A stretch of DNA of 64,000 bases, from the NCBI RefSeq assembly GCF_056712565.1, contig NZ_CM160072.1. The stretch is one strand, 5' to 3'. The position numbers were made by a program. Positions 12,001-21,000 of the stretch are shown here, piece after piece (the first letter of the stretch is position 1; every line of letters begins with the position of its first letter).

Positions 12001-15000
12001 GAAGGACAGCGTCCGGCACCAGAAATCATTCTTTATAAGAGTCTTACAGATACGTCGCCAGGACGGGATATCCCGGCAGCCCAGGTCATTCTCCTGTTCA
12101 TCGGGAATGTCATCCGGGAAGCCCCGCGTCTGATACCAGCGCAGATAGACAGCTATCTTGTTGCGGTAATGTTCTGCTGTTCTTTCCGGCATCACATCCA
12201 GCAGAAACATCGCGTAGCTGCGCCAGGTATGATGGGCTGGTTTTGATATGCGCTTGCGCAGGGCAAAATAAGCACCGCTTTCATTGGCATAAAGTGCCCC
12301 GCTGGCAGCCCCTGATACCCGCTCACACATCCTGGCCCAGGTATCCGGCTCCAGAACATGGTAAAGCCACAGTCCCTTACGTTGTTCAGGACCAAAAGGT
12401 TCACAGACACGCATGTTGCGTAACGGTACGCCGGCACGGTACATCAGGTCATACAGGGGATTGTAGATGGCACGGGTTCTGGTGTGATATATCCAGATAT
12501 CACGAGTTTTCCAGTCATACAGTGGATACATGGTGTAGTAAAACCCTTCAGGCGATGCCGTGGTCCAGGGCTTATCATCGGCGTATCTCAGTTTGCGCTG
12601 GGACACCAGTCCCATGAACCGGTTAAGGGACTCATCCGCACGGACACCGGTCAGTACTGCCACACCACATTTATTGTCTGCAAACCAGGAAGAAAATGCC
12701 GGAACAAATTCTTCAAACGTCATGGCATACCGATAAAATGGGAAATACGTCATGTCTGTAATGGCCTCTTCCGGTGGCTGGCGAACCCAGGTCACTCCTG
12801 GCTCCCAGCATATCCACTCCGGCTGAAACTGCGAGACGCCGTTTACCGTGGTCAGGGGAAGTGCCACCCAGTAAAAGGTTTCCGTCACATCATGGTACAT
12901 TTCCCGCATCTTCTGAATATGTTCAATGGTGCACTGGTACTGAGCCTCCCAGTCAATAAACAGTACAGAGAAACGACGTTTTTTCCTGCGGGCCACATCA
13001 GCCAAAAGATGGAAAAGTACGGTGGAATCTTTACCCCCGGAAAAAGAGAGACAAACTGATGGAAATGTTTCAAAAATCCACTCAATACGAGCAATTGCTG
13101 CACGCAGAACATTCTCTCCAGTAAGGACTTTCTCCGTTAATAAATTATCATTCATTTATTTTTACTTTATGCAAAAGAAACCCGTTGATATCTCCAATAC
13201 ATAGCAACAAACATTAAATAATATTTAATTAATTATTACAGAGATCGTTTTTACCCTTATATATAAAGTAAGCTACATACATAAATTTTTTCAATAAGAG
13301 ATTTTTATTGCTGATACTGGCACTGTAACAATCCCAGTAAGAGAACGATTAATAACCACCCACTCATGTGGTTCAACCAGCCAGGAGTTTACATGTTCTG
13401 AATCAATAAAATCATGGCAATATAATATATCTGAAGCAGGTATATCCAATTCCAGTTTAACACGTCCGTGATATTCATTCGCATCATTAAAAGAATTCAA
13501 TATATCCATCTCAAAAGAAATTACCCCCTCCCCCCTCATCTCTGCTGTTTCTTTTAACTCAGCAATCATATCTGCATACCTGCCATTAAGTTTCCTGCCT
13601 AACTGGACAGTTGTAATTTTCTTTTCGTTGCAGCATCGCTGAGTATGTTCATATATAGCCATCACTTCCCGGCAAATACAATCAACTTCTATATCACTCA
13701 AAGAATTATATATATCCATAACTTTTCTCTCATAACGCAAAAAACGATTAAATATACGATAATGAGAGAGCAAATCAGGATTTATTACTTTTATTAAAAA
13801 TAAAGTTAATAAAACATAACCTATCTGTTTGCTACCATTAAACCCAATAAAATCACTTACCACATCTCCTTTCAATCTACCTGTTCCGATACAACGAGCT
13901 AACAATTCACTCCTGACATTATATTTACCATTCATATTCGCCACACTATCCTGAACAACAAATGATCACCAAAATGCGTTTAAATACCCTACAAACAAAC
14001 TATCTCACTGAATAAATTGCAACACTTCCCCTTCCACAACGTCCTAAAGGCTTTATATAAAAACAGCAAAAACGAATTAGTTATGCAAAGTCATTTATAT
14101 GAAACCCAGCCATTAACCAATGTTATAATCAGCATCCCATAACGCGAACATTATCACTTTCACCATTATTTTTTGCCCATATTTTTAATTGTTCCATGAG
14201 TTGAGCATTAAAATCATCATCGGGTTCAAAGTCATCAGGATCATAACACTCCCCTTCAAACAAATTAATTATAAGATTTTGAATCTTTTCTTTTAATTTT
14301 TCATCGCGCGAAATTCGATTAAATGCTGTATAGGGTTTATCTTTCCCCAACTCCTCACCACCTAAAAAACGCTCAAAATCGGGGGCACTCCAACGATGAT
14401 ATACTTTTTTCCCATTATTCCTGCATTTTATAATCTCATTTCTAATGATCGTATTAAGCGTCCATGAACCATTATTCGAACCATCTCTACGATAAGGCCA
14501 ATCAATATCATGTACAATCCCAAAATCTGCTTTAAAATGATTTAACATCTTTATCAAAGGAACCAGAACCGCCTTACCTCTGGCTCTGACAATACTTACC
14601 TTACCTGACATCTCATGTTTTTCTTTAGTGATTGCTGAAATAAATGCCGCATGTTCAGTATCACCTTCAACAATAATTGGATAACTCCCAAAAAATATTT
14701 CAGCAAAACCAATATCTGTAAGTTGTAGTGCCTGTAAATTATCTTTCTCATCAAGTGAGAAGTTAGCTTCATCAGCCACATACAAGCGTGGAGAAAGTGA
14801 TTTCCCATCTGTTGAACGTTGCATACGAGCAATCGTAGTATGATCCTCAAGAGGGTTTATAAAGTATGGTGAATGAGTTGTTAATAGCACCTGCCAATCT
14901 GGATGTTTACCAAGTTCATAAAGATGCGCTTGCGCCGCTCTGGCAGCCATTGGGTGTAACGCATTTTCTGGCTCATCCATTAAAAGAATATATCCGGGCA

Positions 15001-18000: not shown

Positions 18001-21000
18001 CTGACCAAAACCTAAAGGTGCTTTCCCGAATGAAAACAGCCTGTTGAAGCTACTTTATCTGGGACTGATGAACGCACAGGAGAAATGGACAATGCCCATC
18101 CAAAGCTGGAATTTGACATTGTCGCAGTTAGCCATTTATTTTGAAGGGCGGCTGAATAATGTGATGACGCTGTAGAATTTTTAACGTGACACAGAATTCT
18201 GAACGCTCTCAAATTAAAATCATCGATATTTAACAAGTTTAAATTATTAAGATTATTTTAATCAAGATTAAAAGCATTACAACCTGGAAACTGACATTAC
18301 TGATTACTACACTGGTACCTGAGGCTCACGGCCTCAGGTTGTCTTTATATACTCTCAGAAGGATACTCTTACATTAGCCCAATAACGGCGTCCTTCATCG
18401 ACCTGCCAGTTACCATCAATGGTATCGATATCCTCGCTCTTTCTGTCTGTGACGTTAAGAACGGCAAAATTAATCAGCGTGTCTGGCAGAATCAGGTAAT
18501 TTAGACCAATATCCATAGATGTGAATCCATTACGAACGCGGGGAACCTTAGCACCATTTCTTTGTGCTGCCCAGATTTGTTTTCCCGTATAATTCAGAGA
18601 TGAATAAAATGTAATATCCTGAGTGTAATCCCATTCCAGTTTTGCATTGGCTGCATGTCTGGGAGTTCTTTCCAGAGGTTCCCCTTTCAGCGACTTGCCA
18701 TTGAGACTTTCGTCATCACTTTTTCGACGAGAGTCAGTAAATGTATAGTTTGCAGATACATGCCATTTATCATACACAGGAATCTGAGTTGCAAGCTCCA
18801 CCCCTCTGATATTTGCCTCACCTACATTATCATAAATAAAAGTGTTTAACCCGGTGACTGGATCTTTTGTACCTATATCGTAACTGGTCAACTTATTTTT
18901 AAAATCAGTATTAAACAGCGTCGCGCTCGCCGAAAAACCACTATCATTACTATAAATAATACCGATCTCTTCGGTTACACTGGTCTCCGGTTTCAGGTCC
19001 CTGTTTCCATACATAATAGAGGCACCACCCTGCGTCAGTGTTCCAAATCCAGGACTCACCTCACGAATTGAAGGAGCCCGAAATGCTTTTGCGATCCCCC
19101 CTTTGAGTGTGAGATTATCGGTCAGGTTATAAACAGCGTACAATCTTGGATTCCAGTAACTGCCATAGATTTCATGATTATCGAGACGCAGTCCTCCAGT
19201 CAGGGCGAGAGAATCCGTTGCTGCATATTCATTTTCTATAAAAACAGCTTTCTGTTTAATTGAAACAGACTGTGTTTCTGTCGTTTTTTTACCCGTGGCT
19301 GAGTCATCACGGAGCTCTGCATGCTGAAATTGACCTCCGATGGTCAGTACATTTTCCGGCAGAAATGCCGTCACTTTTGCATCTATGATTGTGTTGGTTA
19401 TTTCCGGTTTTCTTGACTCGTAATTAAGATCCCAATGATTATATTTATCTTTTTTACCTGATTTAACCTCACGAATAACTTTCTCCTGATAAACAGCAAT
19501 TTCAGGATGCAGTATTTCGCCCTGGGCATTCCATGCTGCTACCCAGTGACTACGTGAATTATGCGTTTCTCTTTTACTGTTTGGTTGTTTAAGATTTCCC
19601 CGCATAGTCCAGGCATCGAGAGACTCACCTGGTGTTAATGTATGCACCTGGTTATTTTTTCCATATTCAAAAACAAACTTCTGGCTTTCAGTCGGAGTAA
19701 ACTGGAGCGTTGCCGTTATATTCTTATTATCTTTTGCCGGTGTTCCCTGAGAGATACTATCTTCCTTGCGATAGTTCATTCCTCCATATAGCTGAAGACC
19801 AAGTTTATCCTTAATCAATGGGCCTGACAGATAGAAGTCATTTGTGGTTGAGTTACCAAATTTCCCATGTTCCTGAATAATCCCCCCAAGTCCAAGTACG
19901 CCATCCCATGTTTGGTTATTAACTGGTTTGGTTATGATATTAATGACCCCTCCGATGGCATCAGAACCATACAGGGAAGACATAGGGCCACGGATCACTT
20001 CAATGCGTTCAATTGCTTCCACAGGAGGGATAAATCCGGCTTCAAAACCGCCGCTGCCGTTTGGTCTGGATTCCCGACCGCTCTGACGTCGTCCATCGAC
20101 CAGAATCAGCGTGTAATCGCCACTTAGACCACGTATACTGATATCCGGTTTTTCATTCCCACCAGTGATACTAATCCCTTCAACATCTTTTACTGCATCG
20201 ACCAGATCTGAAACCGGTTTTTTTTGCAGTTGTTCTGAAGTAATGACTGAGACACTGGCCGGGGCATTTCTGAGCTGCTGAGTGAACCCGGAGGCAGTAA
20301 CAACAAGCGTATCTTCTTTTTTATCAGAACTGGCATAACCTGATGATATAACTGCAGAACACATCACGGCAATGCCCGGAGCAATGATATATTTGTTCTT
20401 CATAAATTTCCCTTTGCCAAAGGCGTAATGATAATGATTTGCGTTAGCAAAGAGGAAATTTACAATGAACAGAAAAGAAGGTAAATCACATTTCGCTCAT
20501 TCAGTTAATATTTTCGAATAATTTCCTGAACATGCCAGACTTGATGAGAACAGCAGAACAGCAGAACAGCCCCTTTCTCCGGGGAACTCTTTACTACATA
20601 ATTTATAGTCCTGTCGAAGATGTAAGCTCTTTCATCTGGATATCTCCATCAACAACATTCCAGTAGAGCACACGAGAGCGACAGGGGACTGGCGTTATTT
20701 ATTACGGTATGCTTGTCTGATTTGGTAGAAAATAAAAATGGGCGACTGACCAGATATGGGAGTCTCCGGTCAGTCATTCGCTTGTAGATGCAGGACATAA
20801 GCGAACCAGGGCCCACTGCTTGTGCGCAAAAGCAAGGAGAGTTTACCCTAGCAGATTGAGTTACACCAGATCATCACCTCACTGACCAGTCAGAAATTCC
20901 GACTCATCTTCCACCACTAAACCTGCTCCATCCCAGTCCTGAACCTTCCCTCGCCAGCAGCCAGGATCGTACGGTTCACCACCATCCTCTTCCGTGAATG

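Follow-up and report, generated by a model that had tools for sequence, protein, structure and literature searches.

An IS629 copy with mismatched flanks between a truncated OLD-family gene and an IS256-like element in a pheV papGII island: a probable two-step scar

The window, meaning the whole 64,000-nt stretch of contig NZ_CM160072.1 (assembly GCF_056712565.1) that was analysed, matches the pheV papGII island of APEC O1 and of further ST95 strains, a pathogenicity island of uropathogenic/avian E. coli, at 100% identity, and its exact arrangement is carried by 99 complete genomes. This island is the type V papGII+ PAI of Biggel et al. (2020; PMC7686366). In passages of two studies on ExPEC islands at tRNA-Phe genes (pheV/pheU), modules are described as being gained, lost, and inverted via flanking IS (PMC7686366; PMC11537424), and the window likewise holds pap, pgt, ibr, ireA, and yee-type modules with IS between them, comparable to the IS-separated modules that passages of the second study describe for GI-pheV (PMC11537424). 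The junction considered here, at which an IS629 copy stands between a truncated OLD-family gene (OLD′) and a truncated IS256-like element, is where the ibr/OLD module meets the ireA module. It goes unmentioned in the searched passages on these pheV islands (PMC7686366; PMC11537424); the series of empty and filled sites and the CFT073 inversion described below were reconstructed in the present analysis.

The junction is occupied by an intact insertion sequence of the IS629/IS1203 group (15706–17015, minus strand), which exact end mapping delimits at 1310 bp, with the ends TGAACCGCCCCGGG at 15706 and CCCGGGGCGGTTCA at 17015. Its terminal inverted repeats, of the IS629 type, match at 23 of 25 positions, start with TG, and finish with CA; IRR (15706–15730) adjoins OLD′ and IRL (16991–17015) adjoins the IS256-like element. 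Two frames are encoded on the minus strand, orfA (16961 to 16635; 108 aa, Pfam HTH_Tnp_1) and orfB (16635 to 15748; a 295-aa frame with Pfam HTH_21, rve, and rve_3), and RefSeq annotates the element at 15706–17015 as an intact IS3-family transposase, with a joined CDS, a programmed frameshift, and an AL1L pseudoknot. This organization, an HTH OrfA overlapping a DDE/rve OrfB with a programmed −1 frameshift, is that of the IS629/IS1203 group of the IS3 family. The length of 1310 bp and the TGAACCGCCCCGGG inverted repeats are likewise those of the IS629/IS1203/IS3411 isoforms, which lie 4–5% apart from one another, and the window copy differs by ~3% from O157-type “IS1203 family” copies, being 96.7–96.9% identical to elements annotated as “IS3-like element IS1203 family” on plasmids of 92–95 kb (pO157-sized). 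The element is thus a predicted IS629/IS1203-group isoform, placed by ~97% identity to annotated copies rather than by the ISfinder type sequence.

To the left lies a 5′-truncated gene for an OLD-family (ATPase plus TOPRIM) nuclease (14129–15703, minus strand), a single open frame of 524 codons running from 15703 to 14129 that aligns to residues 103–626 of an intact 626-aa OLD-family protein (EBJ001). Codons 1–102 (the 5′ 306 bp), including the Walker A motif GPNNSGKT, are missing, and the RefSeq CDS of 482 aa begins at an internal ATG at 15577. Pfam recognizes the C-terminal part of AAA_15 and, at fragment residues 337–401, PF20469 (OLD-like_TOPRIM). The intact homologue resembles P2 Old and the GajA-like ATPase-TOPRIM defence proteins in having AAA_15 plus the OLD-like TOPRIM, and it matches PADLOC “Old” end to end (E = 1e-67); PADLOC recognized no partner of OLD in the downstream 217-aa gene. 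Unlike these nucleases, OLD′ lacks the N-terminal 102 residues with Walker A and is therefore not to be counted as a functional member. The intact gene occurs in 24 genomes in a conserved VasL′/helicase context with no ireA nearby, and the truncated gene in 108 genomes, every one of which is without a separate OLD 5′ remnant.

To the right lies the 3′ part (nt 102–1296) of an IS256-family element (Transposase_mut), a 5′-deleted pseudogene at 17016–18210 on the plus strand. The full element measures 1295/1296 bp and has the ends GGGAGTGTTAGAAATTCTGTGTCA... and ...TGACACAGAATTCTGAACGCTCTC; the window copy lacks the first 101 bp, and with them IRL, the leader, and the first 15 codons. Its transposase gene also carries an amber TAG at 17416–17418, where six of seven other copies of the ireA-linked element, and an intact relative, have CAG, and a +1 frameshift caused by an extra C at 18011/12. 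The initial sequence-only reading had recognized the 5′ truncation and the amber stop correctly, but it ended the gene at 18015 instead of 18210, thereby leaving out ~195 bp, and overlooked the frameshift. The intact IS256-like relative in strain A37 matches PF00872 (E = 2e-103), and the features of the IS256 family (Mutator-type transposase, ~1.3 kb, inverted repeats, and an 8–9-bp duplication) are all found for this element. The right copy of its 8-bp duplication, AAATTAAA, which stems from insertion upstream of ireA, is retained at 18211–18218; the left copy is lost. The TonB-dependent siderophore receptor gene ireA itself (18355–20403, minus strand) serves as a backbone anchor, and the IS629::IS256 junction stays linked to it in all arrangements.

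In the window the IS629 copy is bordered by ...ataaac on the left and atccgg... on the right. The left triplet aac (15703–15705; as a 4-bp flank aaac, 15702–15705) marks the break in OLD, with codon 102 lost and codon 103 retained; across this point an intact copy reads ...ataaac then ttctgacg, and the sequence on the 5′ side of the break, after AAC/AAAC, is TTCTGACGATTCTATTGC. The right bases atcc (17016–17019) are the surviving copy of an original 4-bp duplication that reads GTCC in simple-insertion genomes. The first of them is A in the window and in CFT073 copy A, and G in simple-insertion genomes; A-type simple-insertion junctions would read CTCCAATCC + IRR and IRL + ATCCGGCC. A duplication was sought around the window IS and found neither at 3 bp (aac/atc) nor at 4 bp (aaac/atcc), with CFT073 copy 1 of IS629, flanked aga/aga, as a positive control. 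The IS629 group duplicates 3–4 bp on normal insertion, as GTCC and aga in the relatives illustrate, and the missing duplication at the window copy bears on the history of that copy, not on family membership. IS629 without a target duplication is not rare, since only 21 of 47 IS629 sites in O157:H7 genomes have one (PMC3271280); the group contributes to small structural polymorphisms among E. coli genomes, in which later rearrangement erases the duplications of many copies.

End mapping, open frames, and domains thus agree with the sequence-only reading that an intact 1310-bp IS629 sits between two unrelated truncated genes with differing 3-bp flanks and that the OLD-family gene is truncated at its 5′ end, and neither gene continues past the IS in any frame. 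That reading had suggested comparison with related islands lacking this IS629 copy, and the comparison recovered both empty and filled states. In FDAARGOS_1262, ...CTCCAGTCCGGCC... runs uninterrupted in the IS256-like element beside ireA, and AAATTAAA is present on both sides of that element. The filled site, CAGTCC / IS629 / GTCCGG, is found in IMT5155, 729_270514_x_12, O177:H21, 201609, and 20Ec-P-124, and ABW_A19 has the same insertion with the left duplication copy changed to ATCC; these six inspected genomes are drawn from ~167 with a 105-bp 5′ stub marker, and in the two genomes for which both coordinates are listed the 5′ stub lies 1310 bp upstream of the 3′ part. On a 3-bp view (tcc vs gtc) IMT5155, in which the true IS256-like 5′ stub was located, would count as lacking a duplication, which is ruled out by its 4-bp GTCC repeat. 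Because both empty and GTCC-filled sites exist, the right junction is the descendant of an ordinary IS629 insertion, and its left flank was replaced later. The right flank can be traced to both states of the site, the left flank to the intact OLD gene only.

The history best suited to these observations, with a probability of roughly 0.6, is a two-step scar in which a simple insertion was followed by replacement of the IRR side through recombination with a second IS629. In the first step, an IS256-family element entered upstream of ireA, generating the 8-bp duplication, and gained its +1 frameshift; an IS629-type element then transposed into it between nt 101 and nt 106, duplicating GTCC. This step is established by the recovered sites. 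In the second step, all sequence on the IRR side of IS629 was replaced: ~0.8 kb of backbone and nt 1–101 of the IS256-like element were lost, and a ~14.4-kb stretch (1336–15705) ending inside OLD at codon 102 was gained. This stretch comprises an ISEc48-like element and the ~13-kb pgt-ibr-OLD′ block (2672–15705), which is absent from simple-insertion islands. The ISEc48/IS2-group element (1336–2671, plus strand, frameshifted) forms the other edge of the block and has no 5-bp duplication at its flanks (aatac / agttt), so that IS ends without duplications delimit the replaced stretch at either side. Movement of the stretch as a composite transposon (ISEc48-like ... IS629) was rejected: no duplication is common to the outer flanks, and the one IS is unrelated to the other. 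The replacement is established as an event, the window containing neither a second IS629 nor a 5′ IS256 piece, and its most likely mechanism is homologous recombination (RecA- or annealing-type) with a second IS629 of a different isoform inserted in OLD, leaving one IS629 with mismatched flanks and removing the OLD 5′ part and the IS256-like 5′ end. The product then became fixed in ST95 and ST73-type strains, as part of their type V papGII island.

The sequence-only reading was therefore right that this is no simple insertion, as the window lacks both the 5′ 306 bp of OLD and nt 1–101 of the IS256-like element, and the ancestral continuations occur only in other genomes. Its proposal that an IS629-associated deletion or recombination removed both 5′ parts stands as regards rearrangement, but a single event did not truncate the two neighbors symmetrically: on the IS256 side the junction began as a normal insertion with GTCC, and the rearranged side is that of OLD.

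Recombination between two copies is favored over deletion adjacent to a single copy by the contrast between the IS and its surroundings. Between the window IS and the simple-insertion copy, 47–48 of 1310 nt (3.6%) differ, spread from nt 160 to nt 1298, and the adjoining 1.7 kb shows only six substitutions (about 0.3–0.4%) and one 12-bp indel; the simple-insertion copy itself is invariant (0–1 nt) in six unrelated genomes. This sequence comparison favors the two-copy route and does not prove it. The A at 17016 is also the base that an IS629 in OLD (...ataAAC / ttc) would have beside its IRL; it could also be a plain point mutation, since ABW_A19 has independently undergone the corresponding G→A change in the opposite copy of the duplication. 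Homologous recombination between two copies is known to yield one hybrid IS with mismatched flanks and no target duplication, as in the window, and examples are at hand in the reciprocal chimeric copies of CFT073 and in the hybrid copy of 729_270514_x_12, which is of window type over nt 1–1081 and of simple-insertion type, with the G flank, over nt 1241–1310 and documents that recombination at this locus has ended within IS629. Unlike these hybrids, the window copy has no visible crossover and its second parent was not found: a survey of 5,426 complete E. coli genomes yielded no OLD gene that was complete apart from an IS629 insertion, and an exact-pattern scan of metagenome contigs for such a parent (GGGGCGGTTCA-N3-4-TTCTGACGATTC) gave no exact matches. 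Since the difference from the simple-insertion isoform reaches 12 nt from the end, a classical crossover would have to fall in the last ~12–29 bp. Failing that, one complete parental strand must have been retained in the product, or the copy then resident must have been of another isoform when the event took place. Assigning parentage from the SNP mosaic gave no clean answer, every copy being a patchwork, and parentage based on SNPs is weak because the IS629 copies in these islands are mosaics.

A rather unlikely alternative is that transposase acting on the resident IS629 alone joined its IRR end to OLD, by intramolecular transposition or aberrant strand transfer, and deleted the intervening DNA, with no second copy involved. 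The same anatomy would result (one intact IS, no duplication, an untouched IRL junction, and a new IRR junction), the genomes and metagenome contigs searched yielded no second-copy parent, and a further loss bordered by IS629, of 7,098 bp, is seen in CFT073. Of the IS629 sites in O157 genomes, over half are without duplications (PMC3271280). Such a deletion, however, needs OLD and the IS256-ireA unit as neighbors, an arrangement seen in no surveyed genome, and predicts that the IS and its IRL flank are orthologous to the simple-insertion copy, from which the IS is 3.6% removed along its whole length, with a different base at the first flank position. A further poor fit is that copy-out/paste-in via circles, the mode of movement of IS3-family elements, does not readily produce adjacent deletions.

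It is improbable that the join was made by transposase, targeted to an inverted repeat, instead of by homologous recombination; such events are described for IS911 in vitro. On this reading, the IS629 in OLD, cut a single base beyond its IRL and so still bearing the A of its AAC duplication, would have been joined to a point likewise one base beyond the IRL of the IS629 resident in the IS256-like element, with the resident copy and all DNA between them deleted. If true, a join of this kind would be a natural footprint of the IS911-like in vitro events and could explain the frequent IS629 copies without duplications. Still less probable is that IS629 inserted twice, independently, at one hot spot, a different isoform having entered the same position of another IS256-like copy with the sequence CAATCC, in a lineage that lost its IRR-side flank later. 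Independent insertions would account for the whole-length isoform difference and for the A at 17016, and a CAG→CAA change is silent in the reading frame of the IS256 transposase, but the same nucleotide and orientation would have to be hit twice by an element reported to lack a sequence-specific target (PMC3271280), G occupies that base in the empty-site genome and in two related IS256-like elements, which are all the other copies examined, and a second rearrangement would still be required to bring in OLD′. A simple insertion with a decayed duplication, to which only the single-base likeness of the flanks (a_c) speaks, is refuted by flanks that come from unrelated genes on opposite strands and have known continuations in other genomes, and an assembly artefact is refuted by a junction that is base-identical in 99 complete, independently finished genomes.

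In CFT073, a later inversion took place between the window-type IS629 copy and another IS629. CFT073 copy B, one of the chimeras that speak for recombination within IS629, is of window type over nt 1–278 (0 differences) and 381–778 (1 difference) and identical to a third copy over nt 279–380 and from nt 779 to the end (0 differences each). CFT073 copy A (gat / IS / gat, from an IS256 fragment to papG) was rejected as an ancestral simple insertion, as the 144 bp on the papG side are without similarity to the IS256-like 5′ end and the gat repeat is thus coincidental. Simple inversion of a CFT073-like ancestor into the window arrangement was also rejected, because the expectation for the reciprocal junction fails: APEC O1 has there an intact 1171-aa AAA gene and no IS629. 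Since CFT073 in addition lacks the 7,098 bp, it is the derived form.

The junction is an instance of ordinary IS-driven island mosaicism and matters little beyond bookkeeping. It adds a documented case of IS629 copies acting as portable homology in pathogenicity islands, and it fixes the boundary between the ibr/OLD and ireA modules of the type V papGII island. For typing and ordering variants of the ireA island, it supplies a marker series that runs from the empty site through the GTCC-filled site and the OLD′-IS629 junction to the CFT073 inversion. For annotation, the “ATP-dependent nuclease” CDS that RefSeq lists as intact in more than 100 ExPEC genomes is an OLD defence gene truncated at its N terminus and should carry a pseudogene flag.

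An intact 1310-bp insertion sequence occupies 15706-17015, with terminal repeats matching at 23 of 25 positions and intact orfA and orfB. Its IRR end (15706-15730) faces a 5′-truncated OLD-family nuclease gene (OLD′, 14129-15703, minus strand), and its IRL end (16991-17015) faces a 5′-truncated IS256-like element (17016-18210, plus strand) beside ireA (18355-20403, minus strand). An identity of about 97% to 'IS1203 family' copies on plasmids the size of pO157 marks the insertion sequence as an IS629/IS1203-group isoform. IS629 is reported to duplicate 3-4 bp of its target, yet more than half of its sites in O157:H7 genomes carry no duplication (PMC3271280). 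Exact end mapping places the copy between ...ataaac and atccgg..., and no duplication of 3 or 4 bp is present; copy 1 of strain CFT073, flanked by aga on both sides, served as a further positive control. The sequence-only reading had described an intact IS629 with differing flanks between two truncated genes, every element of which holds in end mapping and neighbor alignments. Its preference for deletion or recombination over simple insertion is borne out by genomes with empty and filled sites and by the intact OLD context elsewhere. One point needs refining: rearrangement affected the OLD side alone, and the IS256 side still preserves a normal insertion.

The IS256-like remnant comprises nt 102-1296 of a 1295/1296-bp IS256-family element and ends at 18210; the missing 101 bp hold the left repeat, the leader, and the first 15 codons. 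In FDAARGOS_1262, the complete element lies beside ireA within an 8-bp AAATTAAA duplication, and its empty site reads ...CTCCAGTCCGGCC... unbroken. IS629 is found at the same point within the otherwise complete element in IMT5155, 729_270514_x_12, O177:H21, 201609, ABW_A19, and 20Ec-P-124. The junctions of these simple insertions (...CAGTCC-IS629-GTCCGG...) form a 4-bp duplication, ABW_A19 differing solely in its left copy, ATCC. A 105-bp 5′ stub of the element occurs in about 167 genomes, lying 1310 bp upstream of the 3′ part in the two genomes with both coordinates listed. Judged by these comparisons, the right junction is the relic of an ordinary insertion, of which the window retains only the IRL-side half. 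The remnant carries the amber stop already recognized (TAG, 17416-17418) and an extra C at 18011/12 that had been missed. This C is present in the uninterrupted FDAARGOS_1262 element, so the frameshift is older than the IS629 insertion. The amber codon (T at +401 from IS629) and an A at +974 (17989) occur in ST95-type loci and are absent from CFT073 copy A, described below, and from all simple-insertion genomes except strain 729_270514_x_12; both arose after the OLD′-IS629 junction formed.

The left junction, on the OLD side, is the rearranged one. Here 524 codons form a single open frame, which in alignment covers residues 103-626 of an intact protein of 626 aa from strain EBJ001. That protein matches PADLOC 'Old' over its full length (E=1e-67) and contains AAA_15 and OLD-like TOPRIM domains; the first 102 codons, Walker A among them, are gone from the window copy. 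The intact gene, present in 24 complete genomes, has a constant context: downstream lies an ibrAB-like module, and upstream lie fragments of VasL and ImpA and the gene for a DEAD-box helicase; in none of the 24 is ireA nearby. The truncated gene is found in 108 genomes, none of which retains the missing 5′ part at any location. RefSeq annotates 14129-15577 as a normal 482-aa CDS from an internal ATG (WP_001350737.1, 'ATP-dependent nuclease'), an annotation to be corrected to a truncated OLD gene without the ATPase P-loop. Because OLD′ lies downstream of the IS629 transposase genes and in the same direction, read-through expression of a hypothetical TOPRIM-only protein is conceivable.

Relative to the simple-insertion islands, about 0.8 kb of backbone and the 101-bp IS256 stub are replaced by a 14.4-kb stretch (1336-15705). 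Simple-insertion-island homology stops exactly at the left end of a frameshifted IS2-group element (1336-2671), about 95% identical to ISEc48-annotated copies, with ends TAGACTGGCCCCC... and ...GGGGTGGCTCA and no 5-bp duplication (flanks aatac and agttt); 103 genomes share this left-edge junction. The pgt-ibr-OLD′ block is thus bounded on either side by an IS end, the outer end of the ISEc48/IS2-group element on the left and IS629 on the right. Within the block, homology to the intact-OLD islands begins at 9655, exactly at two tiny gene fragments (9546-9783; a 'transposase DNA-binding' N-terminus and an 'ATP-dependent helicase' C-terminus), which probably mark a further seam between the pgt and ibr modules. 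The IbrB-like gene (11293-11938) carries a frameshift in the annotations of APEC O1 and CFT073 but is intact in the intact-OLD genomes EBJ001 and TUM12357. The adjoining PAPS-reductase/IbrA-like gene (11923-13155) has weak PADLOC matches to BrxP/DndC. The ibrAB-hyp-OLD genes may once have been one defense-type module, now decaying in ST95/ST73.

Recombination between two IS629 copies is the favored origin of the junction, with a probability of roughly 0.6. A second copy, sited in OLD, would have recombined with the copy in the IS256-like element. Either one parental strand would have survived whole in the product, as expected if annealing-type repair left mismatches uncorrected, or the crossover would lie within the final ~12-29 bp. 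The simple-insertion IS629 is a single, invariant isoform with a frameshift (six unrelated genomes show 0-1 differences). The window copy departs from it at 47-48 positions scattered between nt 160 and nt 1298, whereas the adjoining 1.7 kb of IS256-ireA DNA shows only 6 substitutions and one 12-bp indel. In addition, base 17016, the first to the right of IS629, is A in the window and CFT073 copy A, and G wherever the site is empty or simply filled, as well as in the window-type locus of strain 729_270514_x_12. An IS629 inserted in OLD at ...ataAAC/ttctga would carry A next to IRL. It is this whole-length isoform difference beside a near-identical flank, together with the A, that argues for a second copy. 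The A may have been carried over from an earlier AAC duplication or have arisen by chance mutation; an independent G to A change at the same position in the other GTCC copy of ABW_A19 makes simple mutation plausible and counts against two copies. So do the lack of an IS629-in-OLD parent among 5,426 complete E. coli genomes and in an exact-pattern scan of metagenome contigs, the lack of a visible crossover inside the window copy relative to the simple-insertion isoform, and the patchwork nature of IS629 copies here, which weakens inference of parentage. A transposase-driven adjacent deletion from the IRR end of a single copy is unlikely, as it would leave the IS and its IRL junction untouched, and extra events would be needed for the isoform difference and the A. 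The remaining probability falls to a separate insertion at the same point and to other routes. The empty site, the GTCC-filled site, the OLD′-IS629 junction, and the CFT073 inversion give four marker states for following how ireA islands evolved.

Recombination with end points inside IS629 does occur at this locus, as seen in strain 729_270514_x_12 (NZ_CP160121.1), which carries both the OLD′-IS629-IS256-ireA arrangement and the simple insertion (L015 6578-7887 and L011 6106-7415). Its OLD′-linked IS629 is a hybrid, of window type over nt 1-1081 and simple-insertion type over nt 1241-1310 and in its G flank. No difference separates the two loci from about IS629 nt 1241 through 3.4 kb of flank, and the shared tract is itself chimeric: simple-insertion alleles extend to +239, and from +401 the alleles, among them the amber codon, are of ST95 type. 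This suggests that gene conversion has recently taken place between the two ireA loci.

The CFT073 pheU island (NC_004431.1) contains three IS629-type copies (L002 7578-8887, L005 16882-18193, and L005 24379-25688). Copy B has the same OLD′-IS629 junction as the window and abuts on its far side a truncated AAA gene beside the pheU integrase; copy A connects papG with the IS256-ireA unit. The pap-pgt-OLD′ segment bracketed by these two copies is inverted. Copy B differs from the window type at 0 positions over nt 1-278 and 1 over nt 381-778, and from copy 1 at 0 positions over nt 279-380 and 0 from nt 779 to the end, and is a clean chimera of the two; the left part of copy A is also closest to copy 1. 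The AAA gene is intact in APEC O1, where 7,098 bp missing from CFT073 comprise its 3′ part, ept, tia, and ISEc12. Together with the chimeric copies, this indicates that the CFT073 layout derives from the window-type layout through IS629-bounded loss and inversion between two IS629 copies. The gat/gat flanks of copy A were rejected as a true duplication, since the DNA on the papG side bears no relation to the IS256-like element; the match is coincidental.

The 7.5 kb round the junction is 100% identical to ST95-type ExPEC chromosomes, including APEC O1, S88, ATCC 11775 (the E. coli type strain), and many isolates of human and avian origin, and the whole arrangement occurs in 99 complete genomes. 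In APEC O1, the island runs from tRNA-Phe (pheV) through an integrase, the genes for a 1171-aa AAA protein and a phosphoethanolamine transferase, tia, ISEc12, and the pap operon to a YagK-type gene, the frameshifted IS2-group element, pgtP/CBA, the ibrAB-like module, the OLD-type 'ATP-dependent nuclease', an IS3-family element, the IS256-family pseudogene, and ireA. It is the type V papGII island of CC95/CC73 (PMC7686366) and one of the mosaic GI-pheV islands with insertion sequences between pap, pgt, ireA, and ibr modules (PMC11537424). That modules bounded by IS elements are shuffled in such islands is the accepted view (PMC7686366; PMC11537424). Given this and the duplication-free majority of O157:H7 sites, the phenomenon is routine. 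In MS20645 (L014, NZ_CP082091.1), an IS21 element sits within the IS256-like remnant, breaking it at the equivalent of ~17236, and the IS629 upstream is itself truncated, a variant that shows IS traffic continuing at the junction site.
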